In this document: positions 178-45,513 of the stretch, in pieces
Layout: each line of letters begins with the position of its first letter
Position numbering within the stretch: the stretch's first letter is position 1
Virus record (IMG/VR): IMGVR_UViG_3300026522_000022
Coordinates: 1-64,000 of that record
Strand: one strand, 5' to 3'
DNA from: a virus
Lineage: Duplodnaviria; Caudoviricetes
DNA: 64,000 nt
Notes under the pieces: generated by a model
What the model was told of the DNA's origin: nothing
Databases searched by the model: none
The model's input: only the letters and a program-made list of their open reading frames with translations
Position numbers and translations under genes: made by a program

Positions 178-525
178 CTAGGCCACCTTGTAAGAAACCT
201 TACGACCGTCAACAATCTTAACAATCTTGCCAACCTCAACGCCGAGACGCATAACAGCAGCCGCCTTTTGCGTCGTGAGGATACCGCGCACATGCTCCGT
301 GAGCCACTTAGCATTAACCTCATTGTTGCCCATCGCGGTAACAGCGGCATCTACAAGGGCGAGATTCTCAATCCTAGCCTTAGACGGGGCATCGGACTTC
401 TTGCGAGGCTTCGTGATGGATTCATGCATCTTGTTAAGCACCTCAACAACCTCGGGGTTGTTTGCGCACTGCTCAATCGCGAACTCAAGAGCCATAGCAC
501 GGGTAATGGTGTTCTGCTTCGTCAT
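178..525 (-). CDS. small early protein with probable C-terminal winged-helix DNA-binding region
   Basis: 115 aa; own promoter TTGACA(618-613)-N17-TATAAT(595-590); basic C-terminus TQKAAAVMRLGVEVGKIVKIVDGRKVSYKV looks wHTH-like (inference). Confidence 0.8.
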   Translation of the reverse strand: MTKQNTITRAMALEFAIEQCANNPEVVEVLNKMHESITKPRKKSDAPSKARIENLALVDAAVTAMGNNEVNAKWLTEHVRGILTTQKAAAVMRLGVEVGKIVKIVDGRKVSYKVA

Positions 526-1082
526 GGTAAACCTACTTTCTGCCTTTCGGCGGTTTGTTGAAAAGCCCCTTTAGCTTTTCTGTATCTTAATTATACCTTG
601 TCGATTTTGGAGTGTCAAGAACTTTTTTTAACTTTTTTTCGTCGTGCGGGATAGGGAAACGCCCAGCTACCCCGCACGCTACTCTTTGTTTTTCAAAGTC
701 CCCTTGTTCCTTTCAACAATGCTATTGTCTCATGGTTTGCCCCTGCCGTCAAGGGGTTTTTCAGTATTACTTTAAAAAGTTTCGTAACACCCATGCATTT
801 ACATCCGTCTATTGGATGGAAAAGTTAGGCGTGCCTAACTTGTTTAGTCTCTCCCTCCCTCCCTCCCTTGATATGATAGCATAGGTTTTGAGCAATTGCA
901 ATAGGTTTTAGGAAAAAACTTTTTTTAAATTTTCGCCGATTTTTGCTTGACTTTTTCTGCGGGGTGTGTTATAATTTTTTCGCCCTCACAGGGCGTCATT
1001 TCTATTATAGCACACTTCCAAGAGAAAAGCAATAGCTTTTTCAAAAATTTTTGTAAAAAAATAACCCCTTGCGGGGTTATTT

Positions 1083-1148
1083 TTACATGTTGGCGACAAA
1101 CCAAAACGAAAAGATGGTTACGCACATAAGCCAAATAATCTCATCCAT
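1083..1148 (-). CDS. 21-aa hydrophobic peptide MDEIIWLMCVTIFSFWFVANM
   Basis: Own promoter TTGCAA-N17-TAAACT, RBS GAAAGGGG, followed by hairpin AAAATAACCCCGCAAGGGGTTATTTT; below the ORF-track cutoff. Confidence 0.65.
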   Translation of the reverse strand: MDEIIWLMCVTIFSFWFVANM

Positions 1149-1197
1149 TGCAAACCCCTTTCGTCTTTGTCTTTCCTACAATGTTAGTTTAGCACCG

Positions 1198-1671
1198 TTA
1201 CGCCGTCATTGCAAGCACTTTTTCAAGATTTTTCAAAAGATTTGCGGTGTCGCTTGCGTCGATGGTAAAGTTTTCCTCGGTGTACTTTTCCCATGCCTTG
1301 CGAACTTGCGCGTTATCATCTACGAGAATAGAGCCGCGAACTTTTGCGGTGGTATGTTTGCTAGTCCCATACTTTACTACATGAAACTCACTAACGCAAG
1401 GCAGATTGTTTTTAATCCATGCCCTTTTTGCTTTGCGCGTCTCTTTGTTGTACTCTTTAGTACCATGCTTAGCAGACCATGAAATAACGCCAATAACATA
1501 CCCAATAGCAATGAACTTGTCAAGGATAGAATTAAGTTTATCCATGTTAACAAGCGGCATAGCATCAACATAGGGCGAAACGTCGCAAGCGTTCAACTTG
1601 TTTTCCCAATCGGGCACATTGTACAGGTCTGCAATCGTTCCGTCCATGTCAAAGTAAATCGCCTTGGTCAT
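1198..1671 (-). CDS. HAD-superfamily 5'-nucleotidase-like protein
   Basis: Motif I FDMDGT and motif IV ILVDD; promoter TTGACA-N17-TAAACT, RBS GAAAGGGG. Confidence 0.85.
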   Translation of the reverse strand: MTKAIYFDMDGTIADLYNVPDWENKLNACDVSPYVDAMPLVNMDKLNSILDKFIAIGYVIGVISWSAKHGTKEYNKETRKAKRAWIKNNLPCVSEFHVVKYGTSKHTTAKVRGSILVDDNAQVRKAWEKYTEENFTIDASDTANLLKNLEKVLAMTA

Positions 1672-1914
1672 TTTTAACCCCTTTCTTAGTTGGTAATACT
1701 AGTTTAGCATGTGCGGGGCGTGGTGTCAACAAGAATTTTTATTTTATTTTGAGCATAATGAGTTAACCAAAGTTAACTTCTGAGAATCCCCCGACAAGAT
1801 GATAACACATAACCTAGGCCATTACAATAGGTTTTCGGCAAAAAAATTTTTTTAAATTTCTCGCATTTTTCTCTTGACAAGTTGTGGCAGCATGTGGTAA
1901 AATTTTGCGGCCTC

Positions 1915-1934
1915 AGTCGAACATTTGTTCGACT
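1915..1934. promoter_or_regulatory. LexA (SOS/Cheo) box-like palindrome AGTCGAACATTTGTTCGACT
   Basis: Matches the Gram-positive consensus (T)CGAAC-N4-GTTCG(A); lies just downstream of a plus-strand promoter. Confidence 0.75.
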
Positions 1935-1944
1935 TTTGCCTTTC

Positions 1945-2172
1945 TTAGTAGATACCGCGCTTCTTCATTTCTGCATAAGCGGCTTGCATGTGCTTGTAGA
2001 TTTTATTCTTTTCTGCGCGGGTAACGGTGCAATCATCGCTCATGTCGGCATAAAACTTGAGTTCGTCTGCATATTCCTTAGCGGCCTTGAGTTCGTCATC
2101 GGTCATTTTGCTAACGTCGCAAACACCAGCAACCTTGTAGGCGGCTTCTTTGTATTCGTTCGTGTACTTCAT
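1945..2172 (-). CDS. hypothetical early protein (75 aa, MKYTNEY...)
   Basis: Start reassigned to the ATG after RBS GGAAAGGGG and promoter TTGACA-N17-TACAAT. Confidence 0.8.
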   Translation of the reverse strand: MKYTNEYKEAAYKVAGVCDVSKMTDDELKAAKEYADELKFYADMSDDCTVTRAEKNKIYKHMQAAYAEMKKRGIY

Positions 2173-2303
2173 CGTTAACCCCTTTCCTATCCTTTGTTCA
2201 ATTACATTGTAGTGTGCGGCGGCTTGTTTGTCAACCCCTTTTCTCAAAATTTTTGCAAAAAAAATACCCCGCACGCAAGGGGTTAAAACGTGCGGGGTAG
2301 GGG

Positions 2304-3002
2304 TTAGGCAAGTTCTTTGTAGGTGGTTTGAATACGCTGCCACTCCTTATTGTGTAGGCACATGCCAACCGTGCTAGTTTCAAAGTGCTTTTTACGATTG
2401 AAGCACTTCCGCAAAATCTCGCACTCAATAATGCAATCTTCGTGCGCTGTGTGCTTTTCAGTAAAGTTTACATCGTTGGTAATGTAACGATACATAACTT
2501 CTGCGCCGGTCTGAATGTTGCTAACCGTGGTAATGTAACCGTTATCAATGCAAAACTTGATATAGGTATTCGTGCCGAGAACGCTCATAGCAGCGTGCCA
2601 AATGTCAAGAGTTGCAATGTCACCAGCGAAAAAGTTATCATAGCCAAACATTTTAGCGGTCTTGTCAAGATGGTTCACATCAAACGCGATATTGTACGCA
2701 CAAACCGTGCAATTGTAATGCTCAATTAGGCTGTTAATCCTATTGCGAATGTAGGCAAAATCTGCCACATTAAAACCGCCCTTGTTCTGCCACAAATCAA
2801 AGTAATACTTACCAATCTTGTCACGGGTAAAGCGGTCATTGAACATGTCAAGCATAGCGGGATTGTTGATAAATTCACTCACAACATAGCTACCATGTGC
2901 GCTGCAATTGCCCTTGCGGTCAATGAGACGATAGCCAATGTCAAAAACATAGTCGCCGCAAGTCTCCGTGTCAATTACCATGTAATATTTCTTGTTGCTC
3001 AT
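2304..3002 (-). CDS. DEDDh 3'-5' exonuclease (DnaQ-like)
   Basis: ExoI IDTET, ExoII AYNIAFD, ExoIII HTAHED; start MSNKK after RBS; own promoter. Confidence 0.9.
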   Translation of the reverse strand: MSNKKYYMVIDTETCGDYVFDIGYRLIDRKGNCSAHGSYVVSEFINNPAMLDMFNDRFTRDKIGKYYFDLWQNKGGFNVADFAYIRNRINSLIEHYNCTVCAYNIAFDVNHLDKTAKMFGYDNFFAGDIATLDIWHAAMSVLGTNTYIKFCIDNGYITTVSNIQTGAEVMYRYITNDVNFTEKHTAHEDCIIECEILRKCFNRKKHFETSTVGMCLHNKEWQRIQTTYKELA

Positions 3003-3312
3003 TGTTAAACCTTTCTGTTTGTCCCCTTTGACAATACAAATACTACTCTTTGCGTTTGGTGTTGTCAATACCTTTTCGGAAAATTTTTTATTCTACTTTT
3101 GGAACAATGTTTGTCAAAAAAAAGTTAACCGCGGCTAACAAATTTTTTCGGTCGAGTTAGGCTTGGTTAACTTTTTCTTTTTTTTAAAAGCACACACTTC
3201 GCTATCTCGCAAGCCCCTTACGTTGAGGCTGTCCGAACTTCTATGTTCTACGAATATTATAAAGGGGTTGCGCTTGCGCGTCAACCCCTTTTTGCGAGTT
3301 TTTTAAAATTTT

Positions 3313-3573
3313 TTACCAGCGAATAATTATTTGTTTAATCATCCAATGGTCTTTTACATCGTAACCAGCCGAGCGAAGTTCAAAGACAATTTCTTGCTTT
3401 TCGTTTGCAGTTAATCCGTCATAGTTCATCGTGTGTGCATAATCCCAAAGAAACCATTTAAAGCCATCTTTTGCACGTGCAATAATAGCCTTTTCAAGAT
3501 AATTCATAGTTTCATCTTTTGCGTGATTTTGATAACCGTTTGCAATGCGGTTGGCTTCAGTAGCAGTAAACAT
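3313..3573 (-). CDS. hypothetical early protein
   Basis: 86 aa, RBS GAAAGGAG, upstream TTGACA promoter. Confidence 0.8.
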   Translation of the reverse strand: MFTATEANRIANGYQNHAKDETMNYLEKAIIARAKDGFKWFLWDYAHTMNYDGLTANEKQEIVFELRSAGYDVKDHWMIKQIIIRW

Positions 3574-3810
3574 CTTTTCTCCTTTCGTGCTTGTCCCCTT
3601 TGGACAATTACATTATTACATCATGGAACGCGCGTGTCAAGAGAAATTCCAAAAAAGTTAGAAAAATCTTTATGTTTTTTTGAGAATAATACTGGCCGCA
3701 CTTTCCCCGAACTTTCTCAAGTAGTTGGCTTGGGGTATTACCTTGCTCAACCTTGCAACTATAGAATAAACCCCTCAACAATGTTTGTCAAGGGGTTTGC
3801 CGCAACTTTT

Positions 3811-4089
3811 TTAAATCCATGCTTCAATTATATCATTAGCGGTTAGCCACCCCTCAACTTCATCACCGTAATAATTATTCAAATGAACGGGCGGCATTGA
3901 CTCCAATAGACCCTCATTCCAACCATAAGAAACGCCAACCCCATAAATAACAGAGCATTTCTCCCCATACTTGTTAATAAACTTAGTGCGGGTAATGCCT
4001 GTATTATCGCTAATAATAGTAGAATCATCATACCATTCTATTCCTGCGGTAGTCAAGCCCTCACGCAGCGCCCGCATTTCCTTATTCAT
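3811..4089 (-). CDS. hypothetical protein (C-terminal VEGWLTANDII)
   Basis: 92 aa, RBS GAAAGGA. Confidence 0.8.
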   Translation of the reverse strand: MNKEMRALREGLTTAGIEWYDDSTIISDNTGITRTKFINKYGEKCSVIYGVGVSYGWNEGLLESMPPVHLNNYYGDEVEGWLTANDIIEAWI

Positions 4090-4114
4090 TATTTTATCCT
4101 TTCTCTTGGAAAAA

Positions 4115-4288
4115 TTAAAAGATTATGCTAAACCAAATCAACATAGTTATTGTACCACAGACCAACAGAATTGTAAAGAGAATAATTTTTGCCGGAATAG
4201 TCATAGCATCATAATAATTATTGTTCATGTAGTTAAACCACGAAAATACCAACATTGTAACACATGTTAGAATAATAGCCCATAACAT
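4115..4288 (-). CDS. small 2-TM membrane protein (57 aa, MLWAIILTCV...)
   Basis: Translated by hand; two hydrophobic stretches; closely follows the upstream ORF. Confidence 0.7.
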   Translation of the reverse strand: MLWAIILTCVTMLVFSWFNYMNNNYYDAMTIPAKIILFTILLVCGTITMLIWFSIIF

Positions 4289-4290
4289 AA

Positions 4291-4467
4291 TTATACCCCA
4301 ATCGAAAGCAGTACAATACTAACACAAACAACCCCAACAATGCAACCAACAAATTGCATAACATAACCCTTGCGCCAATAATACCACACACCTAGGCCGC
4401 AAGCAAAATAAAAAAACCAAAGGGAAAGCCAACCAATCATCCAGACGAACATTTGTACGGTGCTCAT
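4291..4467 (-). CDS. small membrane protein (58 aa, MSTVQMFVWM...)
   Basis: RBS GGAAAGGGG, promoter TTGCCT-N17-TATAAT; hydrophobic and Trp-rich, all TGG. Confidence 0.75.
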   Translation of the reverse strand: MSTVQMFVWMIGWLSLWFFYFACGLGVWYYWRKGYVMQFVGCIVGVVCVSIVLLSIGV

Positions 4468-4791
4468 AATTTATCCCCTTTCCTTAACTTCTATTAAAAT
4501 TATAGCACATAATTTAGTATCAGGCAAGAAGAAATTTTTTATTTTTTTCTAAATTTCCCCTTGACTTTTCTTGCGAACTGTGGTAAAATTTTTCGCCCGC
4601 AAGCGGGCGAGCTTTATTACTATTATGTTTACTAATTGAAAAATATTTAAATCAATAACGCGAAAAGGCTTGACGTGCCTATCGTTGATAGTGTACAATG
4701 GACTTGTCCAAAGGTAAGAAATAGGACAGCGCACGATAGGCTGGCGGTAAACCTAGGGATGCGGTTGGCCACAGTGTAGCCTTAAAAAGTC

Positions 4792-4888
4792 TTACATACG
4801 TAAAGGCTTACACTTGTAAAATTAAACTTGATAGGTGCAGTATAGTTTTTCGGCCAACTATGACATTTGTAATGGTTTACATTTGTAA
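4792..4888. repeat. four TTACA-N2-TGTAA-like palindromes in two pairs with 16-bp periodicity
   Basis: Copies start at 4792, 4808, 4861, 4877. Confidence 0.7.
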
Positions 4889-4970
4889 AAGTTTAGCCTA
4901 AAGAAAAACCCCGGTGCCCGCAGGTCCGGGGTTTAGCGTGTTCTAATCACGCTCCAATATTTTCCTTTCT

Positions 4971-5177
4971 TTAGCCGACCTCCGGGCCGTAGTAGTAAAG
5001 GCACATAGCCGCGTCCTCGACGAAGTTCTCGGACAGGCCGAACTTGTTGGCGTAGTACTCGACGAAGTGCTCATACCCGTCGTAGTCCTCAGTCTCGTAG
5101 CACTTGGCGATGCGGGCGATAGCGCGGTCAAAACGCGGGTCGTTGATGTAGTTCCTGTTCACGTTCAGCTTCGTCAT
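4971..5177 (-). CDS. hypothetical early protein with GC-rich codon usage
   Basis: 68 aa, RBS GAAAGGGG, promoter TAGACA-N16-TATAAT. Confidence 0.8.
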   Translation of the reverse strand: MTKLNVNRNYINDPRFDRAIARIAKCYETEDYDGYEHFVEYYANKFGLSENFVEDAAMCLYYYGPEVG

Positions 5178-5464
5178 TTTTAACCCCTTTCATATCTTTA
5201 ACCTTACAACTCTATTATAGTCCTTTGATTGCGGCTGTCTAGTAGTTTTGCGATATCTTCACATAATCTTCATAACTCTATTGCACTAAAGTATTAAAAA
5301 AACTTTTAATAATAGTTCGCTCAAACCTATTGCATTCACTCATTCACTCTGGTAGACTACTAGATAGAGAGAAGGGAGAGAGCAATGGTCAGATGAGCAA
5401 CATACTACCTGGGTCGTGCCCATACCTTAGAGCATTGCGGGAGACGGTACTCTGTCTTGAATAC

Positions 5465-5479
5465 AGAACATTTGTTCGA
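5465..5479. promoter_or_regulatory. second LexA box-like site AGAACATTTGTTCGA
   Basis: GAAC-N4-GTTC core identical to the 1915 site; intergenic. Confidence 0.65.
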
Positions 5480-5550
5480 TAAAAAAGTTAACCACGGTTA
5501 ACTTTTTTCACGGCCTCATAGGGCCGTTACCCAGTAAGGCCCTTGGTGGC

Positions 5551-5820
5551 TTACTCTATCAACAGTAGGCCATCATCAAACGATAGCACATAATACACGC
5601 TATCATACAATAGCTCATCATAGTCCTCTAGGCCATAATCTTGCGCCACATCATTAGGCGTGTGGTCTGGCCCTGTCTCTTCCCAATGAATAAAATCATA
5701 CACTTGCGATTCTTTTAGCGAATCAAACAACTCGGGCAGCTCGTCAACTACTGCATCAAAGACATGCGCAGGCAGCGCATCAACCAACGCCCGCACAGCC
5801 GCACCGCTATAGATAGACAT
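5551..5820 (-). CDS. acidic hypothetical protein
   Basis: 89 aa, Asp/Glu-rich, RBS AAGGAG. Confidence 0.75.
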   Translation of the reverse strand: MSIYSGAAVRALVDALPAHVFDAVVDELPELFDSLKESQVYDFIHWEETGPDHTPNDVAQDYGLEDYDELLYDSVYYVLSFDDGLLLIE

Positions 5821-5821
5821 G

Positions 5822-6040
5822 TTACAACTCCTTTTCTACTTGATTACCTTTTCCAAAAACGAATATGTGACACATACCCCGCACCATATCCTCAGCAACT
5901 ATCTTATCCTTGGGGTGTGCCATCATAACAGTGTTACATATCATGGCAATAGTGTGCTCCTTGTAGTAAGGTGTCACATACCCCGCATATCGCTCAAGCA
6001 ACTCACTAGCCATCTGCTCAACCATGTCATAAGTAACCAT
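5822..6040 (-). CDS. hypothetical protein (MVTYDMV...)
   Basis: Start after RBS AGAAGGGA; abuts the next gene. Confidence 0.7.
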   Translation of the reverse strand: MVTYDMVEQMASELLERYAGYVTPYYKEHTIAMICNTVMMAHPKDKIVAEDMVRGMCHIFVFGKGNQVEKEL

Positions 6041-6147
6041 TATGTTATCCCTTCTATTGGATAGATGTAACACACACAACACAACACACACATGCGCACA
6101 GTGTACGCACTAGGCGCGACGCTTGCGCCGCGCCTAGCCGCCCCGCC

Positions 6148-6396
6148 CTACCAGACAGGGACGAGGTGGCCGTCGCGCACTTCGGCGAGGGACATATACA
6201 TTGCCCCATCGCCCTTGGGCGTGTAGATGTACGCGCCCCACTGCTGGCCCTTGGGCAGCGGCTCACTCATGCGAGCGATGGCCTCGGCCTCGGAAGCGCA
6301 ACGCTGCTCAGCGTTGGGCATCTCGACATAACCCTTGGCCTTCTTGTCATAGGCGAAGATGGTGACGGCAAAGAGCTTGTTGGTGGTGGTGGTCAT
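6148..6396 (-). CDS. hypothetical protein, first gene of the minus-strand early region, GC-rich codons
   Basis: MTTTTNKLF..., RBS GAAAGGA, promoter TTGCAC-N17-TATAAT at about 6432-6460. Confidence 0.8.
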   Translation of the reverse strand: MTTTTNKLFAVTIFAYDKKAKGYVEMPNAEQRCASEAEAIARMSEPLPKGQQWGAYIYTPKGDGAMYMSLAEVRDGHLVPVW

Positions 6397-6759
6397 GGCG
6401 TGCGTCCTTTCTCTCAACTGCTTACATGTACATTATAGGGGATGCGGTCACGCTGTGCAATACCTTTGAGCAAACTTTCTTGAAAATCTTTTGTCGTGTG
6501 TCAGCTTCGGATTTCAGCTCGTTCACGGTCGATTGAATTGCTCCATGCATCGCAAGCCTTGCGCGGCGTGCCTTTGCGTGTCGCTGCGCTGGCAAGACGG
6601 GGGGGCCGCATGGTCATGCCGTCCGTGGGGCCGCGAGGGGTGTCCGCACCCTTTGGCACTTCATCCACCTACAAGGTACTCCTCTGCGGTGACCGGACAA
6701 CCCGCGGGTGTGTCCTAGGACCAGCGTCCCTGCGATCCGCCCTCGCTCTTTGCCTCATC

Positions 6760-7015: not shown

Positions 7016-7045
7016 TTGACAAGTCAAAGAAAAACATGATATAAT
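7016..7045 (+). promoter_or_regulatory. sigma70-type promoter
   Basis: TTGACA-N18-TATAAT with extended TG. Confidence 0.75.
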
Positions 7046-7083
7046 ATCTTTGTAAGATGAAATAAATCAGTATAGGAGTGTAT

Positions 7084-8184
7084 ATGCAACTTGACTACAC
7101 CTTAACCACTCCGCAAGAAAGAATTGAGTGTGTTAACAAATTAATTGCAGAGACTCCTGACGAAAAGCTTACCCCACAATATTTAAATTATATGTCCAAT
7201 TATATTTTATTTACACAAGATAAAAATCAAACTAAAAAGGAGAAAAAATCAGAATATCCTACATTAACAAAAAATCGTGAAGTAACAATTAATAAACGTC
7301 AGGTATCATTTGAAGAAATAGTCTCTAACTTAGAAAATGGCGAAGATGGTCTTTACGCCATGATTAATAATGATAAGAATCAAATTCTTGATCCTAAAGA
7401 CCCAATTACCCAAGAAGAAATCTCTACCATTCCCGGCATGCGGGGATTAATGGATACAATTAACACTCTTCAAAATCAATTTCAAAAAGCAAAGGGCTCC
7501 GCACGTTATATTTTAAAACGTTCTATTATTGAAACATGACAACAAGCCTATCTTCTTAAAGCATCCTGAAAAGGTGCGAACGGCAAGATGAAATCCTCTC
7601 AAATTAAAACTCTTGCCAAACTAGATTTAGAAGAGCACATAACCTTCAATGAAGAAGGAATGCCAGTGTCCTCCGCACTTCTTTCTCTTCTAAATCCAGA
7701 ACATATATCTTTTCTTCTCTGCTATTATCCTAAACTTAAAGAAGAATGTTGAGACGACCTTCAATGCGATATGCATTGACTTTTAGTGGACTTAGAAAAT
7801 CTTGCGGAACGCGTGCTTTTAGAAGATTATCCTCTTCTCTACGATCTAATTATCTGAAAAGTAGATGGTCTTACAAATGAACAAATTCAAATTGAAATGG
7901 ATCGCAAATATGGTGAATGACACTCTGAACAATATTATTCATCACTTTGGCGTAAACGTATCCCACGTTTACTCGCGGAACAAGCTCAAAAAGATTATTT
8001 AATTTGATATTATACAAATATAGAAAAAGGTTATTGGAAGAAATGCACAAAATGCGGGGAGATCAAATTAGGTCACCCGGCTTTCTTCTCCAAAAATTCA
8101 TCTAAAGATCATTTTTATAGTCAATGTAAAGATTGTAAAAATGGTAAAACAGATAAAAAGAAGAATAAAAATAAAAAGAAATAA
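7084..8184 (+). CDS. HTH plus C-terminal Zn-ribbon protein, putative regulator (code 4, 366 aa)
   Basis: Open through 7 in-frame TGA to TAA; ends KCTKCGEIK...QCKDCK; HTH-like WKVDGLTNEQIQIEM. Confidence 0.8.
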
Positions 8185-8241: not shown

Positions 8242-9435
8242 GTGACAGAAAGAATAACCTGTACAAAATGCGGGCGCTCGCGACCTGAAACTGAGTTTTT
8301 TAAACTAAAAGGCGGGCATCGCGACGATATATGTAAAGATTGTTTAACTATGTATATCGACAACCGCAAACCTGACACGTTTATGTGAATCTTAGAAAAA
8401 TTCGATGTACCCTACATTGAAAAGAAGTGAGTCCAACTCTGCAACGAAGTTTACAAAAAGAATCCCGGTTCCTTTGGCCCCAAGTCAGTCATAGGCCGCT
8501 ATCTACGAGCCATGAATATGGTACAATACAAACAATATACCTTCGCAGATACCGACAAACTAAATTATGCCGATAAAAAACAACAACAAGAATCAGAAGC
8601 CGCTCTAGCAGCCGCCCAAGAGAGAGAAGAAGAGTTAAGAGCTAAATTAGAACGTGGCGAAATTACTGAAGCACAATACAACACCTTATCTGCGGGGACC
8701 GCGTCGTCGAATACCACACCTGAGTTCGAGATACCCAACACTCCGCAATACACAATTGATGAGTCAGTTATCACAGATTCTCTCACAGACGAAGATATAC
8801 AATTCCTCATGTTAAAATGGGGCACAGTATATACTCCTTCTCAATGAGTAGCAATGGAAACGATGTATAAACGTTATGCTAACGAATATGAACTTAACGT
8901 AGACCGCGAAGAAGTCCTTAAAAAGATGTGCAAAACTTCTCTAAAGATGGACGAAGCTCTTGATACAGGCGATGTAAATGGTTATAAGAGCCTTGCAACC
9001 GTCTTTGACCAGCTCCGCAAATCAGGAAAGTTTACTGAAGCACAAAATAAGGAAGAAAAACAACGTTATCTTGACTCTATTGGAGAATTAATAGCTGTTT
9101 GTGAGCGTGAAGGTGGCCCAATTGAGCAATTCCCAGACCCAGACGAGTATCCGCAAGATAAAATAGATTTTACTTTGCGAGACCTCAAATCTTATACTTA
9201 TGGTTTAGTTACAAATGAACTTGGTCTTGGTGATTTAATTGAATCTTACATTGAAAAGCTTGAAAAAGCAGAAGAAGAAGGGGATGTAGATTTAGACAAA
9301 GGATTGATAACATCAGATGAAGAGCTTGCGGCGGACGCGTTGACGGATGACGAAGCTGAGGAATTTCAAGTGTTCTTAGAAAATGAGATAGAAAAGGATG
9401 CTGAGCGTCTCTTGGAAGAGTTAGGAGGTGAATAA
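8242..9435 (+). CDS. Zn-finger protein, probable terminase small subunit (code 4, 397 aa)
   Basis: GTG start after AAAGGAGG; CTKC...CKDC; 3 in-frame TGA; immediately upstream of the large terminase. Confidence 0.7.
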
Positions 9436-12400
9436 ATGTCTTTAGATGCGTTACTCTCTACTCAAAAGACCGCAGAACAAGAAGCTGAAATTACAAAAGA
9501 AGTTATTTTAAATAATATGGATGATTTACGACAGATTATATCCTATTGGAGAGTATATCCAGATAGATTTGTTGATTTTTTATGCAGTTTAAATCCAGAA
9601 AATACTTTTCACTTCTTTTTTTACCAAAGATTGTTCTTGCGGGCGGTTATGCGGCATAAATATGTCTTTGCAACATTCGTTCGTGCTTGGTCTAAGTCAT
9701 TTATGTCGGTTATGTCGCTTATGATTAAAGCAATTCTTTATCCTGGAGCTAAATTGTTCACTGTAGCTGGTGGTAAAGAGCAGTCTGCACAGATTCTTTC
9801 TGGTAAAGTAGATGAAATTTGTCGTTTAATTCCTGCTTTTGAAAAAGAAATTATATGAGACACCAGAGGAACTAGAGCTAGAACGTCACAAACAAAAGAT
9901 AGTGTTATTTATACATTTAAAAATGGTTCAACACTAGAAAACGTGGCTGCTACAGAAAAAACAAGAGGTAGGCGTTTCCAAGCAGGATTGATGGAAGAGT
10001 GCGTAGGTATTGACCAAGACATATTGAATGAAGTTATAATCCCTCAAGGTTTTCAAAACGAGTGGGGCCTAGCAGCGTAAGTTGTTAGTGAAAATCGCGT
10101 GAACGCAAGGAAAAGCGGTGTGTGATATTTATCATGCTAACGGTGAACGAAAGAATACCGTGCCAAGCTCTTTTAGAGAAGGCGTAGAGACTATGGGTGA
10201 TGAATGTAGCCCAGTAGGCCAGATTTTACCACTGGTCGAAGCGCGCGACTGCCAAATTGGTAGAAGAGATAGTCCAAGATATATAAAATATATTATGACT
10301 TTAAATGTTAACCGCCAGATTCCTGGCTGGGGCGCAGATGATAAGGAAGCATTAAATAAATCTCAAATTTTCGTAAACTTTTTGGGCAAAAGAGTAACAT
10401 TTTATTGTTAAAAATTTTAATAAATATAGAAGATAAAAACAAAAGAATGGAGTTTTTATGTACTATATTTATAAAATTGAAAATTTAGTTAATCATAAAA
10501 AATATATTGGTTTAACTAATCATATTATAAGAAGAAAATCTAGGCATTTTTGTGATTTAAAATATGGTAGACACGATAATCATTTTTTACAAAAAGAATA
10601 TGATATTTATGGGAAAAACAATTTTTCCTTTGAAATACTTTTCCAAGATAATGTGGATTCTCAGACTATATCGGATAAAGAAAAAGAATATATAAAATTA
10701 TACGATAGTTATTATAATGGGTATAATCAAAACGAAGGAGGAAATTTTGGTCCTTCTAATGGAGGAACAAAATTTACAAAATCTGACATTTTTACAATTT
10801 TAGCTGTATCTGAGTTTACTCATAGATCAGGACAAGTTTTAGCTGATATATATGATACCTCTAGAACAACAATTAGTAGAATTAATAAGGGTGTAAATCA
10901 TTGCCAGTATTACGAAGAATATCATAATCTTTCTTATGAAGATAGATATGAAATTTTTTATAATATTCAAAAAGATTTAGATATTGAAAAACAGATAATA
11001 AATTCTAATAAATTACAAAAAACAAGAAAATTAACTGATGAACAAGCTTTGTGAGTATTAGTGAATCATGATTATCATATAATGACACATGAAAAATTGG
11101 CCGAAAAGATAGGAGTAAAATCAACTTACACTTTACAGTGTATATGAGAAAATAAAACCTATAAAGATGTTAATTTACAATATAGTAAAATGACTGACTC
11201 TGAAAAACAAAAAATTGCGACGTTACTTAGTAATAAGTAAATGAAAACCTCTCTAATTGCTGGGAACTCCTATAAAATAGGACAATCAGCAGCGAAGCCT
11301 TGGAGACAAGGAACGTTCAACGACTAGTCGAAAGACGTAGGCCGCAAGCGATTGGCGGTCGAAACGGGAGGCCCCATTTTATGGGTGAAGATATAGTCTA
11401 CTCTATATGGTAATATATAGCAGTTCATAAGAGAACGCTTGTAAGTTAGCGCCTTACAAGGAATACAAGGAACAACTGCAGGATATAAAAATACATATTC
11501 TTATGAAAAACTAATTCAGCTTCTTTGTATGTCGGTAGCCCGTCCTAAAGATGCTATTGTTCTTGGTGGTTCTTGAAGAGTTCCTGTTATTGAAAAACTT
11601 CTTGATAAAAATTTTGTTAAAGAGCTTAAATTAGATGGTACATTTAACGAAGCATCATTTGAACGTGAATATGAATCAAAATGGACTGGTGATATTGAAT
11701 CTGCGTTCTTTGAATCATCTAAGTTTGATAAAAATAGAATTATTAATCTCCCAGAATATAAATATAGCAATAAAACTTCTAAAGAAGGCTATTATATCAT
11801 GGGTGTTGACGTAGGTCGTTTTGGGTGTAGCACTGAAGTTTGCATTATAAAAGTTACACCTGCGGCGTCTGGCGCGATGTTGAAACGTCTGGTTAATATT
11901 TATTCATTTGATGAAGAGCACTTTGGTATGCAGGCTATTAAAATTAAGCGTTTATTTAATCAATATAAATGCAGAGTGGCTGTTATCGACGGTAATGGCC
12001 TTGGCGCTGGTTTAGTCGATATGTTGACAATGGATACTACAGATCCAGACACGGGCGAAGTATTGTTTAACTGGGGTGTTTATAATGATGAAGATAGAAT
12101 TTATAAACACATGGAAACAGAAAATACAATTCACAATGCAATGTACATTATGAAAGCTAATCAAACTTTGAACTCTGAAATGTATGCTTATTGTCAATCT
12201 CAAATGAGCGCAGGCCGCATTAAATTCTTAGTTGATGAAAATATTGCAAAGAATAAACTCCTTTCCCAAGAGCAAGGTAAGAAAATGAGTGCGGTAAAGC
12301 GTGCGGAGTACCTGCAACCGTATGTGCAAACCTCTATCCTCAAAGACCAAATGTTAAATTTGATTCAAGAAAATGATGGCGCGCATATTATTTTAAAACA

Positions 12401-12548
12401 AGCTTCAAAGAAAATCAAGAAGGATAAATTTTCTGCTCTAATTTATGGTTTATATTATTGTAAGCTGCAAGAAGATAAGCGCAGCCGCAGAACAAAAATT
12501 AATCCCGCTGATTTAATGTTATACAGTAAAAAAATTGGGGTAAGATAG
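9436..12548 (+). CDS. terL: terminase large subunit, spliced: exons 9436-10044, 10298-10374, 11471-12548 (code 4)
   Basis: Walker A-like RAWSKSF, Walker B-like GLMEE, coupling motif FVTTAG rebuilt across the intron 2 junction, nuclease GVDVG and KKDKFSA; in-frame TGA in IIWDT and GGSWRVP. Confidence 0.9.
10045..10297 (+). mobile_element. group I intron (253 nt, no ORF) in terL
   Basis: 5' exon ends in U (CCCU), intron ends in G; IGS GAGUGGGG pairs with both exons; P/Q AACGGTGAA/AATACCGTG, R GTAGAGACTA, S AAGAGATAGTCC; splicing restores VIIP-TLNV. Confidence 0.9.
10384..10420 (+). promoter_or_regulatory. putative phage late-promoter motif GGGCAAA-N24-TTTTAA
   Basis: Same spacing recurs at 12538, 34290 and 54099. 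Confidence 0.6.
10458..11240 (+). CDS. intron-encoded GIY-YIG homing endonuclease (code 4, 260 aa)
   Basis: YIYKIENLVNHKKYIG...R...H...E...GYN; 2 in-frame TGA, ends TAA. Confidence 0.88.
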
Positions 12549-15956: not shown

Positions 15957-16451
15957 ATGGCAATTACCATTACACGCGAAGGGTATGGTCAGGTAGAGCC
16001 TAACCACCTTTCAGCTCCTCGCGATGGTCGCGTCTATGCGCAGCTTCCCGCCGCCGAGGGCATTAAGGTCCTTGAAAATGGTATGTTTGTAAAGTATGAC
16101 TACGCTGCTGGCGAGGTCAACTTTGACGGGGACGGCGCTTGGATGCTCGTTTACAACGAGGAAAAGCTTTATGATGAACGTCACCAGATGCACAAAGACT
16201 GGGCACAGAAGGTTGAGGATTCCTATGACGGTAAGATTTATCCTCGTGTCTTTGGCATTGTAGCTGGTGATATTTTTACAACTAATATGTTCGCACAGAA
16301 CACTGAACTTGAAGTTGGTGACGATGTTACCCCTGGCGATGACGGTATTCTCGCTGCTGGTAGCAACGGCGATGTTGTTTTCCGTGTTGTTAAGGAATAC
16401 ACATTACCTGATGGTCAGCCTGCCGTTAAGTTACAGTGCATCAAGGCTTAA
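15957..16451 (+). CDS. capsid decoration/minor head protein
   Basis: 164 aa directly before the major capsid gene; strongly biased codon usage. Confidence 0.7.
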   Translation: MAITITREGYGQVEPNHLSAPRDGRVYAQLPAAEGIKVLENGMFVKYDYAAGEVNFDGDGAWMLVYNEEKLYDERHQMHKDWAQKVEDSYDGKIYPRVFGIVAGDIFTTNMFAQNTELEVGDDVTPGDDGILAAGSNGDVVFRVVKEYTLPDGQPAVKLQCIKA

Positions 16452-16471
16452 TTGAAGGAGGGAAGCATATA

Positions 16472-17566
16472 ATGGATTATAAAGATCTACGCGAACTAGC
16501 TCGCATTGCAGTTTCTGCTGATCCAAAGGCTCCAGTTGCTTACTCCTTTGGCGAAGAGAAATTTACCCTTGATCAGGTTAACGAAGCTCTTGCTACAGAG
16601 TTCCGTGCATTAGCTCCTGATTATCGTACATATAAGGAAAATCAGAACACAATTTTCCGTCTAATTGAAGAGTCAATTAATGAGGTTCTTCCTGCTCGCG
16701 TTGAGCAACAGTATATGCAGTTTGCTGAGGTTCGTCGAGTCGCTCAAGGTGATAAGGCCATCTTCCGTCAGCGCATTACTGAGGCTGCTAAGACTCGTGC
16801 TAAGAAGAATTTTGTTACTCGTGTTGGCCTTGCTGGTCGTTACGAGGTCTTCATGCTTGATGGTCGTGAGATGGAAGTTCAGACTGCTGCTATTGGTGGC
16901 GCTGCTCGTATCGGCTTCGAGGAGTTCCTTGATGGTCGTCTCCAGTTCTCCGATCTTACAAGTCTAGTTATTGAAGGCATGGACGAATACATCTATCGTG
17001 AGATTGCTAAGGCTCTTGAGGCCACTGTAAAGAATCTTCCTGCCGTTCAGCGTGCAGAGGTTGCTGGTTTCGATGAGGCTACAATGGATGAGCTCCTAGC
17101 TATCGGCGATGCTTATGGTCGTTCTGCTATTTATTGCACAGCTGAGTTTGCTGCTAAGATGCTCCCTGCTGAAGGTTGGGTATCTGACAACATGAAGGAC
17201 ACTCTCTGGGCCAATGGTATGCTTGGTAACTACAAGGGTCACCAAGTAATTATTCTTCCTCAGTCAATGGTTGATGAAACTAATACTGAAAAGGTTATTG
17301 ACCCCGCTCAGGCTTATATTATGCCCGTCGGCGCTGAGAAGCCTGTCAAGCTAGTCTTTGAGGGTGGCGCTTGTGTCCGCACAGTTGAGGATAATGATGA
17401 CTGGAGCACAGATTTCCAGACTTATCAGAAGTTTGGTATCGCTACATTCTTCACAAACTTTATGCTCAGCTATCGTAACACTGATCTCAAGAAGGATACA
17501 CGTTTACATAACCTTCCTGTCGATAACTCTAGCACTATTACTCCTACTGGTACAGTTACTCCATAG
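16472..17566 (+). CDS. major capsid protein
   Basis: MDYKDL... after RBS GGAGGG; about 364 aa, high-expression codon bias, followed by a terminator. Confidence 0.82.
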   Translation: MDYKDLRELARIAVSADPKAPVAYSFGEEKFTLDQVNEALATEFRALAPDYRTYKENQNTIFRLIEESINEVLPARVEQQYMQFAEVRRVAQGDKAIFRQRITEAAKTRAKKNFVTRVGLAGRYEVFMLDGREMEVQTAAIGGAARIGFEEFLDGRLQFSDLTSLVIEGMDEYIYREIAKALEATVKNLPAVQRAEVAGFDEATMDELLAIGDAYGRSAIYCTAEFAAKMLPAEGWVSDNMKDTLWANGMLGNYKGHQVIILPQSMVDETNTEKVIDPAQAYIMPVGAEKPVKLVFEGGACVRTVEDNDDWSTDFQTYQKFGIATFFTNFMLSYRNTDLKKDTRLHNLPVDNSSTITPTGTVTP

Positions 17567-17623
17567 GTAGATCAGTTGTTTCAGCCTAAAATCAACAAAG
17601 TGTCCGAACATTAATTTATTTCG

Positions 17624-17665
17624 AGGGGAGGGAAGGAAGTGCCTTTCCTCCCCTTTTTATTTTTT
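17624..17665 (+). terminator. intrinsic terminator after the capsid gene
   Basis: AGGGGAGGGAAGG...CCTTTCCTCCCCT plus T-tract. Confidence 0.8.
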
Positions 17666-17687: not shown

Positions 17688-18233
17688 ATGTTAGAAGATA
17701 AAGAATTAGTAGAAGTTCGTAATCTTGTAGATCATATGGTTGTTTATAAGATTGATGAATTAAATCGCAGGGTTGTTTTTAACCCATTTGAAACTAAAAA
17801 AGTGCCGGTTGATGAACTTAGACGTTTAAATTACCAACATGGCGGACAAATTCTTTTACATAATTATTTATGTATTTTAAATGACGAACTCCGTCAAGAG
17901 TTTGGTATTGATCCAACGATGGTAGAATATGATTGGACAATTAAAGACATTGATGCCGCACTTACATCTAGTCCTATTGACGAACTTTTAGATGCTCTAG
18001 AGTTCGGGCCTGAAGGTATTAAAAATATGCTTGTCGATAGGGCAGTACAATTGAAAATCCCCGATACCAATAGAAGAAAAGCAATTCAAGAAATTACTGG
18101 TGTCGATGTAAATAATATGATTAATTTTAAAGAACAAGCCGAGGCGATTGAAAATAAAAATGCGGCAGTTGCTCCGCATACTCGTCGCGCAAGCCAAAGT
18201 GTTACAGTTGGTGGAAGACGCGTCCGCCATTAA
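17688..18233 (+). CDS. hypothetical protein (post-capsid)
   Basis: 181 aa, RBS AAAGGAG. Confidence 0.8.
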   Translation: MLEDKELVEVRNLVDHMVVYKIDELNRRVVFNPFETKKVPVDELRRLNYQHGGQILLHNYLCILNDELRQEFGIDPTMVEYDWTIKDIDAALTSSPIDELLDALEFGPEGIKNMLVDRAVQLKIPDTNRRKAIQEITGVDVNNMINFKEQAEAIENKNAAVAPHTRRASQSVTVGGRRVRH

Positions 18234-18251
18234 TTGAGAAAGGAGATTAAT

Positions 18252-20781: not shown

Positions 20782-20792
20782 GATGGTGTTTC

Positions 20793-21672: not shown

Positions 21673-22800
21673 ATGCGATTTGGTGTTCGCGAAATTTGCG
21701 ATGTTGTTTTCAAGCCACTAGCCGCTGTAGATATTGGAAACCAACACTTTGACGCTATGCAGCCTGTCCTTTACTTAGATACTGCTAAGACTTCTAGTTT
21801 AGAGGGCGCATCCACAACTGTATATGCTCAGGGTGGTAAAGGTAACCCACGTCTTATTGGTTGGGACGGTGAGAAAACTCTTACATTTACCGTTGAAGAT
21901 GCTCTTATGTCACCTTTAAGCTTCCATATGCTTTCTGGTGCGGGCGTTGTTAAGGGTAGTGGACAAGTTGGCGCAGAGGGTGCAAAACATATTTATGTCC
22001 ATCAGACTTATGATCTTGTTGTTCATAGTCAAACTACTGGTACTGGGGACGATGCCACTACAACTTTTTATGCAGAACTTCCATCTGAAACTCGTAATGG
22101 TGCTCGTTTAATAGCAACAGTTGAAGCTCCAATTTACGCAACTACTCTTGACAGTGCAGGTGCACAAAAACTTTCATTAAGTGCAATTGCTGCAGATGAA
22201 ATTAAAAAAGGTGCTAAGTGAAGTACAGCAGAAGCTGCTACTCCCGGAGAAAAGGGTCTTATTCCTCTTGCTGTTACCGACAATGTTTATTTCATTTTAG
22301 ATCACAAAGGCGATATTGCCAGTGCTGATAATTATACTGACGTTGAGCTTAAAGATGGCGATACTGTTCGTATTGATTGTTATGCTGCTTATGCAGATAA
22401 AGCACAAGAGCTTCAAATTGATGCTGAGACATTTGGCGGATATTATTACATTGAAGCTTCTACATTGTTCCGTGATGAAGCAACTGGTCAAGACTTCCCC
22501 GCTGAGTTTGTAATTCCTCGTGGTAAGATTCAGTCTAACTTCACTTTTACGATGGCTAACTCTGGTGATCCTAGTACATTTACTTTCACTATTGACGCTT
22601 TCCCAGCTTATACTAAGTTTGAGAAAGGAAAGAAAGTTATGGCTGCTTTGCAGATTATTGATCCTGAAGCAGCAGCTCACAACTATGCTGATCCTAATGT
22701 TTCTGGACACGGTGGTCGTTACGCCGATAGTACTGGTGCTATGGATAGCGATGCTTATTATGACGAAATTTACGACGAAAAGAGCGTATTTACTGACTAG
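21673..22800 (+). CDS. major tail (tube) protein (code 4, 375 aa)
   Basis: AQGGKGNPRLIGWD and FTMANSGDPSTFTFTID; single TGA at 22219; strong codon bias; terminator follows. Confidence 0.8.
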
Positions 22801-22841: not shown

Positions 22842-22874
22842 AAGGGGTGTCCCGTGCGGGCACCCCTTATTTTT
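22842..22874 (+). terminator. intrinsic terminator
   Basis: AAGGGGTGTCC...GGGCACCCCTT plus T-tract. Confidence 0.75.
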
Positions 22875-22896
22875 GTATATGCGGAAGGAGGTGCGA

Positions 22897-24507
22897 ATGG
22901 TCAGTGATTTAGGAACGTATGCAGGAACATACAAAGCTGGATATAGATATGTTCAATCTCAAAATTTACCTGCTCATTATCCTCATATTACATCTAAATC
23001 TCCATCTATTATTAGAGGAGCGAAGGAAAAAATTTTAAATGATTTTCTTAGTCTAGCTAATCAACAATTTTTTCAATCTTCTGGAGGAGTTTTTCAAAGT
23101 TTTTCTTCCGTAGAAGAGTTAGATCAATTATTGCAAATGTGAACTTCTCAAAATACAGGGAGCGAACTTGGGCAAGCTTTAAGTGATGGAATCGCACAAA
23201 AATTAAATGATGATCCTTGAACTGGCTCAGGACTAACAAAAGGATTGAAAAAAAGTTTAAACATGGAGAATATTTCAGATGGCAGAACTCGACAAGCAAA
23301 AAAAGTTTTACAAGAAGCTAGTTCTTTATGAGAAAAAATTGAGCCATTATTACAACGATATATTGAACATTATGCCAACACAAAACAAGATGCTTATTTA
23401 GCAAAATGCTTAGAAATTTACAGACGAACAGGAAAAACTGATAGTAATTTTTTGAGTAAATATAATAATATTCAGATAACACCTGAACAAGAAAAAACAA
23501 TGAGCAATAAAGTTAATGGTGAATTTAATAGAATGGACGAAACTTTACAAAAAATAATGGCTTTAATTAATAATAAGGGAAATGCAGGAAAAGCTGGAAT
23601 TAAACAAAATCCTTATACATTAGGACAATCTATTGGTGGTAATTTTTCTGCATTAGGTGGAGAAACAGTTGGTGAAATTGTTGGAATAACAGCAGCAAGT
23701 TCAATAAAAGTTAAAGAAAAAGAAACACAAAAACAAATAGAAGATATGTTTGAATCGACCGGCGGAAAAATCTCTTTTAAAGGGGTTCAAACTGGAGAAG
23801 ATACAGTTTCAATTGGAGAACTTAAAGTGCAAGCAAAAGGAGACTGGTTAATTTCCATGACTGTAAATGGTGTTACAATAGAAATTCCTGTTTCTCAAAA
23901 AATGAATGCTTTGCAACGACAAGGTGGGAAAAAATCTTTTTGAGGTAAAGCTCGTAAATTTCAACTTGTTCAAGAATTAAGTTTACAAGCTCTTATGTCT
24001 ATGACTTTTACAGACAGTCCGGAATGAATTGAACAACATTTGGCTGTTTTATCCTCTTCAGAAGAAGATAATATTGATATTAGAAATAATTCTTCAGAAT
24101 TAAATAATGCTGTACAACTATGGAATGATTTTAAAGAAAATGCTAGGTATTTAGGGTTATTCAGAGCATTAGTCGGTACAGGAACTGAAACGAGTGCAGG
24201 AAATTTAGATTTTGCCGCTTTATTAGTTGTAAATAATAGAATAGTAAGTGTTGGAGATATTTTAATGAGAGCGGTAAATGGTAATTCTGTATTTAGAATG
24301 AGGCCAAATAATATTATAGATTTTTATCAAATGAGAGATATAGTTTCTGGTCCTTATTATGGAGAAAAAAATATTCATGACATTCATAAAGATGATGGAG
24401 GAAAAGGAGCACGTATAAGTGAACAATACGCAGCTATTAGAAAATTATATATTGAGCAAAAATATAAATTTGAAATAAATATGGGATTATTAGGAGCCAC
24501 TCGATAA
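22897..24507 (+). CDS. hypothetical protein (code 4, 536 aa)
   Basis: RBS AAGGAGG; three in-frame track ORFs joined by 5 TGA; ends TAA. Confidence 0.75.
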
Positions 24508-24508
24508 A

Positions 24509-24537
24509 TTGACATAATAAAAAATTTATGATATACT
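24509..24537 (+). promoter_or_regulatory. sigma70-type promoter inside the tail module
   Basis: TTGACA-N17-TATACT with extended TG. Confidence 0.75.
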
Positions 24538-24567
24538 TATTATATATAGGAGAAACAAGGAGGAATA

Positions 24568-25107
24568 ATGACATTATATATTGATAAAGAGAAAACATCT
24601 GCATTATCTTCTGCGGCGCAATTCGATATTATTAATTTTTCAATTCAAGCCGCAGAAGAAAATGGTTTTCTAAATTCATTTATTTTTGAACGTGCTTTAT
24701 ATTGCTTTGCGGCAATCGTACTTAATGATGACCGCAAAGAAGAGATTTCTTCACTGGTAGCATCTGGTATCATTGAGGCTTGGGAAAAGCTAGTTGAAGA
24801 TGGTACTATGGATGAGCTTGTCAAAAATTATAAAGAAGCACTTAATGATTTAAATGAAAATGCAATCCGTTGGTTTAACGAGTATCAGAAGTATACTATT
24901 TCTGCTCGTGGTTTGCTTAATAATATCCAAGAGTTGAGTGGTAGTATAGTTCAGAATGCAGCAGACCAGTTACGTAGCGCTTCTACTGAGACTGGTGTAG
25001 CCGATGTATTAAAGATTGCTGATGCGTGGGGTATGAATCGAGACATAATGAAAGAACCAATAGAAGAAAAACAAGAAGTGGAGCTTCCTGAAGATAGTCT
25101 GTTATAA
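24568..25107 (+). CDS. hypothetical helical protein
   Basis: 179 aa, RBS AAGGAGG, no TGA. Confidence 0.8.
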   Translation: MTLYIDKEKTSALSSAAQFDIINFSIQAAEENGFLNSFIFERALYCFAAIVLNDDRKEEISSLVASGIIEAWEKLVEDGTMDELVKNYKEALNDLNENAIRWFNEYQKYTISARGLLNNIQELSGSIVQNAADQLRSASTETGVADVLKIADAWGMNRDIMKEPIEEKQEVELPEDSLL

Positions 25108-25159
25108 AATTTTTATTTACAAGTTTTTAAATATTACAAGTAAATAAAAAAGGAGAAAA

Positions 25160-25381
25160 ATGTACATCAATCAACATCATCATTTTGGTAAAGGTAATGA
25201 ATATAGTAATGTTTGGTATATTTATGCAATAGATAAAAATACTATTATTGATTGTTTTGATGGTTGGTCTAACGATTGTTGGGCATATATCGAAGAAAAG
25301 TATGGTATTAATAATATAGGTAAGATAGCTGTAGGTAATATCGCTGAAGCTAAATACCTAGGAATGACTGTACATTATTAA
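25160..25381 (+). CDS. hypothetical protein
   Basis: 73 aa, RBS AAGGAG, no TGA. Confidence 0.75.
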   Translation: MYINQHHHFGKGNEYSNVWYIYAIDKNTIIDCFDGWSNDCWAYIEEKYGINNIGKIAVGNIAEAKYLGMTVHY

Positions 25382-45511: not shown

Positions 45512-45513
45512 CA

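Follow-up and report, generated by a model that had tools for sequence, protein, structure and literature searches.

In a phage from cattle gut that reads TGA as tryptophan (Trp), how often a gene uses TGA is characteristic of that gene and is maintained in relatives, and within the late genes the codon is consistently depleted from the gene for the major capsid protein and from its two small neighbours. The window, by which we mean the whole stretch of DNA that was analysed, is the first 64 kb (64,000 nucleotides) of the 130,610-bp virus record IMGVR_UViG_3300026522_000022. The same genes are depleted of TAG in related phages that reassign TAG instead. We consider it probable, while allowing for the alternatives discussed below, that codons whose reading depends on suppression are avoided in high-copy virion proteins, on top of the code-switch model already published for recoded gut phages.

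That TGA encodes Trp follows from several observations. Treating TGA as a sense codon raises the length of the longest open reading frame (ORF) from 1.6 kb to 8.8 kb. When nine late genes were aligned to 20 standard-code lineages, masked TGA sites fell opposite Trp in 102/182 cells, and TGG-encoded Trp fell opposite Trp in 98/154 cells of the same genes and relatives; one TGA of the endolysin gene lies at a QxW motif of a ricin-type lectin domain. The gene table of the whole record, which includes genes of at least 40 codons, lists 143 genes with 200 TGA and 298 TGG, with the reassigned codon concentrated in structural and lysis genes and missing from the core genes of replication. The host most likely uses the standard code; a host itself on code 4 is unlikely, as sister lineages are standard-code or TAG-reassigning and the phage has a suppressor tRNA of its own. 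Indirect support for a standard-code host comes from these sister lineages, from the cultured Enterococcus phage relatives on the standard code, and from the fact that nowhere in the genome is a TGA stop needed. Neither RF1 (PF00472) nor TrpRS (PF00579) was found in the record, which is estimated to be 90% complete, and a DNA search of a phage collection returned two weak matches only.

Within the family, some members reassign TGA, others reassign TAG and others keep the standard code. Searching IMG/VR with the portal yielded 80 loci, which were reduced to 47 lineages at <90% portal identity: 19 TGA-recoded, 8 TAG-recoded and 20 without recoding. Two complete relatives, G1 (L096) and G4, were used as well, and the gene-specific pattern of TGA use is kept in both. 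The late genes with which the argument is mainly concerned are the following.

12977..14536, plus strand: portal gene (PHROG 2739, E 6e-87); 0 TGA, 3 TGG
14548..15933, plus strand: head-region gene with no function assigned; 0 TGA, 4 TGG
15957..16451, plus strand: small capsid-associated gene; reassigned codon in 0/17 TGA and 0/8 TAG lineages
16472..17566, plus strand: major capsid protein, HK97 fold (fold model with a predicted local distance difference test score, pLDDT, of 69); 0 TGA, 3 TGG
17623..17655, plus strand: strong terminator-like hairpin after the capsid gene, 14 pairs and then a T run
17688..18233, plus strand: small gene following the capsid gene; its relatives have 11 Trp codons, none of them TGA, and 1 TAG vs 30 CAA/CAG
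21673..22800, plus strand: virion structural protein, probable major tail protein (PHROG 2729); 1 TGA, 1 TGG
22842-22868: terminator, a strong hairpin after 21673-22800

The fractions of reassigned codons for these and other late genes, first in TGA lineages and then in TAG lineages, are:

7084-8184: 0.55; 0.20
TerL C-terminal piece: 0.54; 0.27
portal: 0.30; 0.21
14548-15933: 0.13; 0.18
15957-16451: 0; 0
16472-17566 (capsid): 0.02; 0.03
17688-18233: 0; 0.03
five other genes (18252-21560): 0.27-0.47; 0.30-0.41
21673-22800: 0.09; 0.07
other late genes overall: 0.27-0.58; 0.10-0.41

The capsid gene and its neighbours at 15957-16451 and 17688-18233 lie below the other late genes in 17/17 TGA lineages. 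With the A/G preference at third positions as covariate, the capsid gene of the relatives holds 1 TGA vs 16.3 expected among 57 Trp codons, at an A share of 0.83; the corresponding figures are 0 vs 7.0 for 15957-16451 and 0 vs 3.5 for 17688-18233. In the TAG lineages the capsid gene has 2 TAG vs 74 CAA/CAG, and the three genes together 3 TAG vs 184 CAA/CAG, compared with 198 vs 599 in the other late genes (Fisher 9e-17). Since TAG competes with CAA and CAG, and not with a third-base variant, third-position bias cannot account for this second result: the depletion of the capsid-region genes is independent both of the stop codon that was reassigned and of third-position composition. The gene at 21673-22800 shows a weaker trend of the same kind in the TAG lineages (4 TAG vs 52 CAA/CAG, against the same other late genes; Fisher 0.0017). 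Across families, the TGA and TAG fractions are correlated with rho 0.55, and this correlation is due entirely to four depleted families.

The identity of the capsid gene is confirmed by its predicted structure, for which Foldseek returned 229 matches at E <= 0.001; the matches listed belong to HK97-type capsids or to encapsulin shells. For the head genes, neither Pfam nor NCBIfam returned a usable match. In clusters of an atlas that resemble 15957-16451, Phage_cement or minor-capsid Pfam families occur in ~25% of members, and this similarity is only a lead towards a possible cement or decoration role.

These results can be interpreted as follows. The phage would read TGA as Trp by means of its own tRNA(UCA), in a host that most likely uses the standard code. 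In a first layer, as in the published code-switch model, TGA-free early genes and replisome would be readable by the unmodified host. In a second layer, the late block would contain no prohead module exempt from the switch, and the only genes kept free of the codon would be those of the capsid protein and its two small neighbours, with a less clear case for the major-tail-like gene. Suppression of a stop codon would compete with the release factor, so that each such codon would lower the yield and give rise to truncated subunits; the cost would be greatest for proteins of which hundreds of copies must come together in a shell or a tube, and truncated subunits may poison that assembly. We infer both the incompleteness of suppression and the level of expression; the strong terminators after the capsid gene and after 21673-22800 count in favour of this interpretation. 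In classical translational selection, highly expressed genes avoid poorly decoded codons, and here, too, the bias among synonymous codons falls on genes whose products are expected to be the most abundant. Unlike in the classical case, the disfavoured codon is a stop for the host, and the cost would consist of premature termination and truncated subunits, not just of slow decoding.

Several points weigh against this interpretation. Because the lineages are related to one another, both the sign test and the pooled tests treat them as more independent than they are; the TGA set and the TAG set alone stand clearly as separate events. The cement-like role of 15957-16451 is no more than a lead, and no assignable function turned up for 17688-18233. 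At 21673-22800 Trp codons are scarce, and in the TGA lineages the deficit of TGA falls short of significance (1 vs 3.3 expected). Finally, in this genome the capsid gene and 15957-16451 favour G-ending codons (A share 0.27-0.34), so that composition would suffice for these two genes if the relatives were ignored.

The regulator-like gene 7084-8184

Among the alternatives, the one that survives best, which we regard as unlikely but worth serious consideration, places the gate on a single regulator. The features concerned are:

7016..7045, plus strand: perfect sigma70-type promoter (TTGACA, 18-nt spacer, TG, TATAAT), preceding 7084-8184
7084..8184, plus strand: regulator-like gene with a C-terminal zinc ribbon; 7 TGA, 2 TGG
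8242..9435, plus strand: gene without assigned function, with an N-terminal zinc ribbon; 3 TGA

According to this alternative, 7084-8184 would be transcribed early by the polymerase of the host, and its translation would be blocked past residue 152 of 366, where its first TGA stands, until spliced tRNA(UCA) accumulates; the product would then turn on or antiterminate the whole late block. In this way the code switch would set the timing of late transcription, and the TGA codons of single late genes would be secondary. A promoter match of >=11/12 (that is, at least 11) is found upstream of the orthologue in 30/32 lineages, on all three codes, vs 8-10 in control windows. Reassigned codons occur in the gene in 15/17 TGA and 7/7 TAG lineages, and in the TGA lineages it is the most TGA-enriched family (46 vs 27.6 expected, upper tail 3e-5). 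A hairpin with Ts of its own directly follows the stop codon.

The arrangement of promoters is also in keeping with a late block that depends on a phage product. Promoters were scanned by consensus matching to the host-type sigma70. Positions 1-7100 contain 42 sigma70-like sites, mostly on the minus strand, vs 14.3 +/- 3.9 expected, and 104-124 kb of the genome contains 137 vs 76.5 +/- 8.4; in 6-26 kb there is no excess (79 sites vs 70.6 +/- 9.0). The enrichment in 1-7100 makes it reasonable to call the genes of the first 6.4 kb early.

As to function, the label of sigma factor comes only from PHROG 5767 (E 3e-40) and from GenBank annotation, where the homologues in cultured phages are named sigma factor or LuxR. 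This label was not confirmed by Pfam or NCBIfam, in which 7084-8184 has no match, nor by searches of the PDB with a sequence profile or with Foldseek; VIA-align recovered generic helical hairpins only (Z <= 7.3). Moreover, the TAG fraction of the gene is not above that of other late genes in TAG lineages, its position could also suit a small terminase subunit, and a 9-mer search of 13 intergenic spacers for a shared late-promoter motif yielded only ribosome-binding sites and T runs.

The regulator and the avoidance in virion proteins could also be combined, in a scheme that we hold as tentatively as the regulator by itself: the code switch would be wired into transcription, with the full-length product of 7084-8184, a gene that heads the late block, made after splicing and charging of the tRNA and licensing late transcription, and the highest-copy virion proteins would be purged of TGA because suppression is leaky. 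Should late transcription indeed be under the control of 7084-8184, expression of the head genes, too, would be held back until the switch, which argues against any scheme in which proheads come first.

As a separate observation on this pair of genes, the CxxC…CxxC zinc-ribbon segments at 8242-8400, the N-terminus of 8242-9435, and at 8040-8170, the C-terminus of 7084-8184, are alike (…C-T-K-C-G… and …C-K-D-C…), which suggests that the adjacent genes share a duplicated module.

Timing of the head genes, composition and acquisition

The sequence-only reading had counted 13 Trp codons from the portal gene through the post-capsid gene, all of them TGG, and had suggested that head genes in the standard code may allow proheads to be made before the switch, while packaging, tails and lysis wait for it. 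The recount agrees (0 TGA, 13 TGG from portal to 18233), and, relative to the other late genes, the probability of 0 in 13 is ~1e-4 with either the A/G preference at third positions or the GC (guanine plus cytosine) content at third positions (GC3) as covariate, and it is 0.005 by a scan statistic that takes in every run of late genes. Under a fit to the whole genome the probability is only 0.04-0.07.

The relatives do not bear out the timing that was proposed. The portal gene carries the reassigned codon in 10/19 TGA and 7/8 TAG lineages; it does so in the closest relatives (92% portal identity), with 2 TGA and 1 TGG, and also in G1 and G4. Its relatives contain 14 TGA vs 15.9 expected with the A/G covariate, that is, no depletion, and at the family-wide rate of 0.30 the probability of finding 0 in 3 is 0.34. 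For 14548-15933, which bears the codon in 8/18 TGA and 5/6 TAG lineages, the depletion is moderate (8 TGA vs 19.5 expected), and 0 in 4 has a probability of 0.57 at the family-wide rate of 0.13. The absence of TGA from these two genes in this genome is ordinary sampling: seven of the 13 TGG codons are in genes that are TGA-free for this reason, and six are in the genes in which avoidance is conserved. Calling the five genes a TGA-free head module is thus correct for this genome and overstated for the family, as only three of them are consistently free of the reassigned codon in relatives.

Nor did the scan show a strong host-type promoter from which the head genes could be read separately. In the consensus scan no sigma70-like site scoring >=11/12, i.e. 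at least 11, was seen between 7045 and 24509, and the head genes lie directly downstream of TGA-bearing genes, without a gap. The tail-region gene 21673-22800 is depleted too. Altogether, we find a gate that puts proheads first very improbable. Avoidance in genes of presumably high expression, which the sequence-only reading had offered as its alternative, fits better: the same genes are depleted whichever stop codon was reassigned. The general partition of the genome is real and as published, and the part that concerned the head module is replaced by avoidance in the capsid gene, in its two neighbours and probably in the major tail gene.

The explanation by composition or mutation bias alone, in which the choice between TGA and TGG follows the A/G preference at third positions and TGA-free genes are simply richer in GC, appears, if anything, slightly less probable still. 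It does best for the genes at the left end of the window:

178..6417, minus strand: early block of 16 short ORFs; 29 TGG, 0 TGA, stops all TAA or TAG, GC3 ~0.4-0.6 (higher)

The count of about 29 Trp codons without TGA that had been made by hand is therefore accurate. The share of A at two-fold sites is 0.42 in this block, and for the 8 early genes accepted by the gene caller, which have 17 Trp codons, composition predicts 1.5-2.7 TGA (P of none 0.03-0.19): the absence of TGA from the early block has no independent significance in this genome. The orthologues in G1 are likewise TGA-free. Within the block, 1198-1671 and 2304-3068 have PHROG matches.

Composition fares worse elsewhere. TGA use is bimodal across the genome, with 30 of the 70 genes that have >=3 (at least three) Trp codons lacking TGA vs 17.9 expected, and in 20,000 composition-matched simulations the number of such genes reached at most 29. 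The core replisome (DNA polymerase pieces, DnaB-like helicase, primase, ligase and both topoisomerase II subunits) has 0 TGA; its genes are AT-rich at third positions, yet they use TGG only, and they are TGA-free in the two complete relatives as well. The preference of the capsid gene and 15957-16451 for G-ending codons, mentioned above, is on the side of composition, and it is outweighed by the A-rich capsid genes of the relatives and by the avoidance of TAG. Composition is refuted for the capsid gene with its two neighbours and for the replisome, and is sufficient for the 1-6.4 kb block taken alone. What agrees with the published idea, in which genes expressed before the switch stay readable in the standard code, are the TGA-free replisome, the promoter-rich early region and the self-contained pair at 24568-25381 with its own promoter and terminator.

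Least probable of all is a recent acquisition of the capsid genes from a standard-code relative, too recent for TGA to have been gained: it would agree with the GC of 0.46-0.48 in 15957-17566 (~0.34 in adjacent genes), but none of the TGA and TAG lineages examined lacks the depletion, and capsid and portal identities track each other (88% and 86% to L009; 56% and 61% to L016).

The suppressor tRNA and its intron

The suppressor tRNA(UCA) is encoded at 115149-115436 of the genome (L003:11149-11436), outside the window, and its gene is split after U34 by an intron of 192 nucleotides (nt). With default settings ARAGORN did not report a tRNA(UCA), and with its intron option it labelled the split gene an ochre suppressor. 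When the gene is spliced in silico, ARAGORN folds a tRNA with anticodon UCA, A1-U72 and G73, and the joined anticodon loop of 7 nt, CUUCAAA, is the same as in the intron-less gene of G1. Contigs from RNA runs X1 and X2, two libraries of one bovine-gut sample, join position 11181 of L003 to 11374 and skip the 192 nt. This junction coincides with the predicted exon ends, which indicates that the suppressor exists and is spliced. All RNA runs that hold the phage are available as contigs only, so that genes cannot be ranked by depth.

The intron scores 41.9 bits against the Rfam model Intron_gpI (RF00028), for which the cut-off is 50, with E 1.4e-9 in a search of 341 nt and over the full length of the model. 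It lies between U34 and position 35, the 5' exon ending in U and the intron in G. In the cyanobacterial tRNA-Leu(UAA) type, a group I intron likewise stands in the anticodon loop between positions 34 and 35, and the pre-tRNA-Ile of Azoarcus is said to be another bacterial tRNA with a group I intron in its anticodon loop. The present gene resembles these in the site of the intron and in its terminal nucleotides, and differs from known tRNA group I introns in that the split tRNA is an opal suppressor, with a Trp-like identity and an extra arm. In relative G5 the gene is split in the same way and its acceptor stem shows a compensatory change; G4 has a split gene with an intron of 611 nt.

Additional observations concern the tRNA and its surroundings. 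The long extra arm of tRNA(UCA) ends in a CUCCAAA loop, identical to the normal Trp anticodon loop, and so does that of the G4 homologue. A second split tRNA gene at L003:2255-2940 (genome 106255-106940) folds as Lys(UUU) after removal of a 610-nt intron that contains an ORF of 149 codons; one related contig in run X4, which is probably DNA, joins 2289 to 2900, so that an intron-less allele of this tRNA-Lys(UUU) exists. A full-length ROOL RNA (347.6 bits) at L003:8384-8985 (genome 112384-112985) adjoins the tRNA array, and its contig depth in two RNA libraries is ~3000 vs <10 in the flanks, a difference of hundreds-fold.

A similar interruption is present in the window, in the terminase region:

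9436..12548, plus strand: terminase region; 9436-10080 and the TerL C-terminal piece at 11529-12548 have 1 TGA each
10458-11240, plus strand: GIY-YIG homing-endonuclease gene (2 TGA, GC 0.24), which together with an intron-like spacer splits the terminase region

Within 10412-11528, the spacer after the GIY-YIG gene carries a GGTGAAGATATAG core motif, as does the tRNA(UCA) intron, and the interruption of the gene for the terminase large subunit is probably a third group I intron.

Relation to known recoded phages and neighbouring features

Recoding in gut phages was described earlier by Yutin et al. (PMC7886860). In the recoded gut phages analysed by Borges et al. (bioRxiv 10.1101/2021.08.26.457843), stop-codon recoding regulates late and lysis genes, and early and replication genes are in the standard code; their Agate clade includes TGA, TAG and standard-code members and has TGA-rich intron endonucleases. 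The present phage resembles those of Borges et al. in reading TGA as Trp with a suppressor tRNA of its own, in its standard-code replication genes, in its recoded structural, lysis and homing-endonuclease genes, and in having close relatives on different codes. It differs from them in that no RF1 or TrpRS gene was found, and in that its suppressor is hidden by an intron. The overall partition between early and late genes is known from Borges et al.; what is added here is the avoidance of the reassigned codon in the capsid region within the late genes. Neither that avoidance nor a link to expression is reported in Borges et al. (bioRxiv 10.1101/2021.08.26.457843) or in Yutin et al. (PMC7886860), and the terms 'highly expressed' and 'sigma' have 0 occurrences in the preprint of Borges et al.

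Phage phAss-1 reassigns TAG to Gln and has uninterrupted suppressor tRNAs; its suppressed codon occurs in the genes for TerL and the tape measure, and the capsid protein is not among the recoded ones listed (PMC10607447). Enterococcus phages EF1 and VRE9, of ~140 kb, are placed with phAss-1 (Phassvirus) in the same wider group (PMC10607447). The phage studied here is similar to this group in genome size and has a weak DNA similarity to phAss-1, from which it differs in reassigning TGA to Trp. The standard-code phages EF1 and VRE9 have homologues of 7084-8184.

A family with TGA, TAG and standard-code lineages amounts to a natural experiment on recoding. The distribution of the reassigned codon among its late genes bears a clear mark of purifying selection, as the capsid gene and its neighbours avoid the codon under both reassignments. 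Such avoidance would mean that suppression has a cost and does not go to completion; part of a pattern that looks regulatory may thus be avoidance of cost rather than design. The heavily recoded, regulator-like 7084-8184 behind a host-type promoter is a concrete candidate for a gate. Suppressor tRNAs split by introns can be missed, which bears on published recoded phages without a detectable suppressor tRNA.

The remaining features of the window are:

24509..25435, plus strand: self-contained unit in the late block, with a sigma70-type promoter (24509-24537), two genes and a terminator (25400-25435)
24568-25107 and 25160-25381, plus strand: TGA-free gene pair; 0 TGA, 6 TGG
25564..63182, plus strand: tail, fibre, glycosyltransferase and lysis genes; 110 TGA, 51 TGG
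62199-63182, plus strand: endolysin; 5 TGA, 2 TGG
63234..63725, minus strand: RuvC-like resolvase gene (3 TGA, 0 TGG), which opens a minus-strand block of replication and nucleotide-metabolism genes

The terminase pieces, the resolvase and the endolysin, whose counts are given above, are TGA users, as the sequence-only reading had it; likewise, the glycosyltransferase gene has 4 TGA and 3 TGG, and the giant tail and fibre genes have 19/11, 25/9, 13/4 and 11/3 TGA/TGG. The single TGA ascribed to the major tail protein and the six TGG codons of the pair at 24568-25381 were found again as well. In the wider genome, TGA is used by GIY-YIG and HNH homing endonucleases, a methyltransferase, a guanylate kinase and RecJ pieces.

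For the pair at 24568-25381, Pfam and NCBIfam gave no usable matches. In G1 the homologous unit (~18170-19020, complementary strand) has a perfect sigma70 promoter upstream, and the intron-less tRNA(UCA) gene lies ~280 nt downstream of the homologue of 24568-25107 and is followed by a terminator; judged by this layout, the unit of G1 has the makeup of an early 'code-switch' island inside the late block. This fits the earlier suspicion that the pair at 24568-25381 would be an early island read by the host.

Two further stretches deserve mention. Between the early block and the promoter at 7016, overlapping long ORFs (204, 235 and 147 codons, with 3-4 TGA each) are found on both strands of 6054-6908 only when TGA is read as sense, and none of them has phage-like codon usage, so that this stretch may be non-coding. 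In the DnaE gene, on the minus strand at 75294-75300 of the genome, the PHP domain can be followed past CTT TGA C, which is the shift site of prfB, only by moving to the +1 frame. The DnaE gene of G1 has no extra T and reads straight through (…RLLDSIN…), and a programmed frameshift is no more likely than a one-base indel or an assembly error in a T run.

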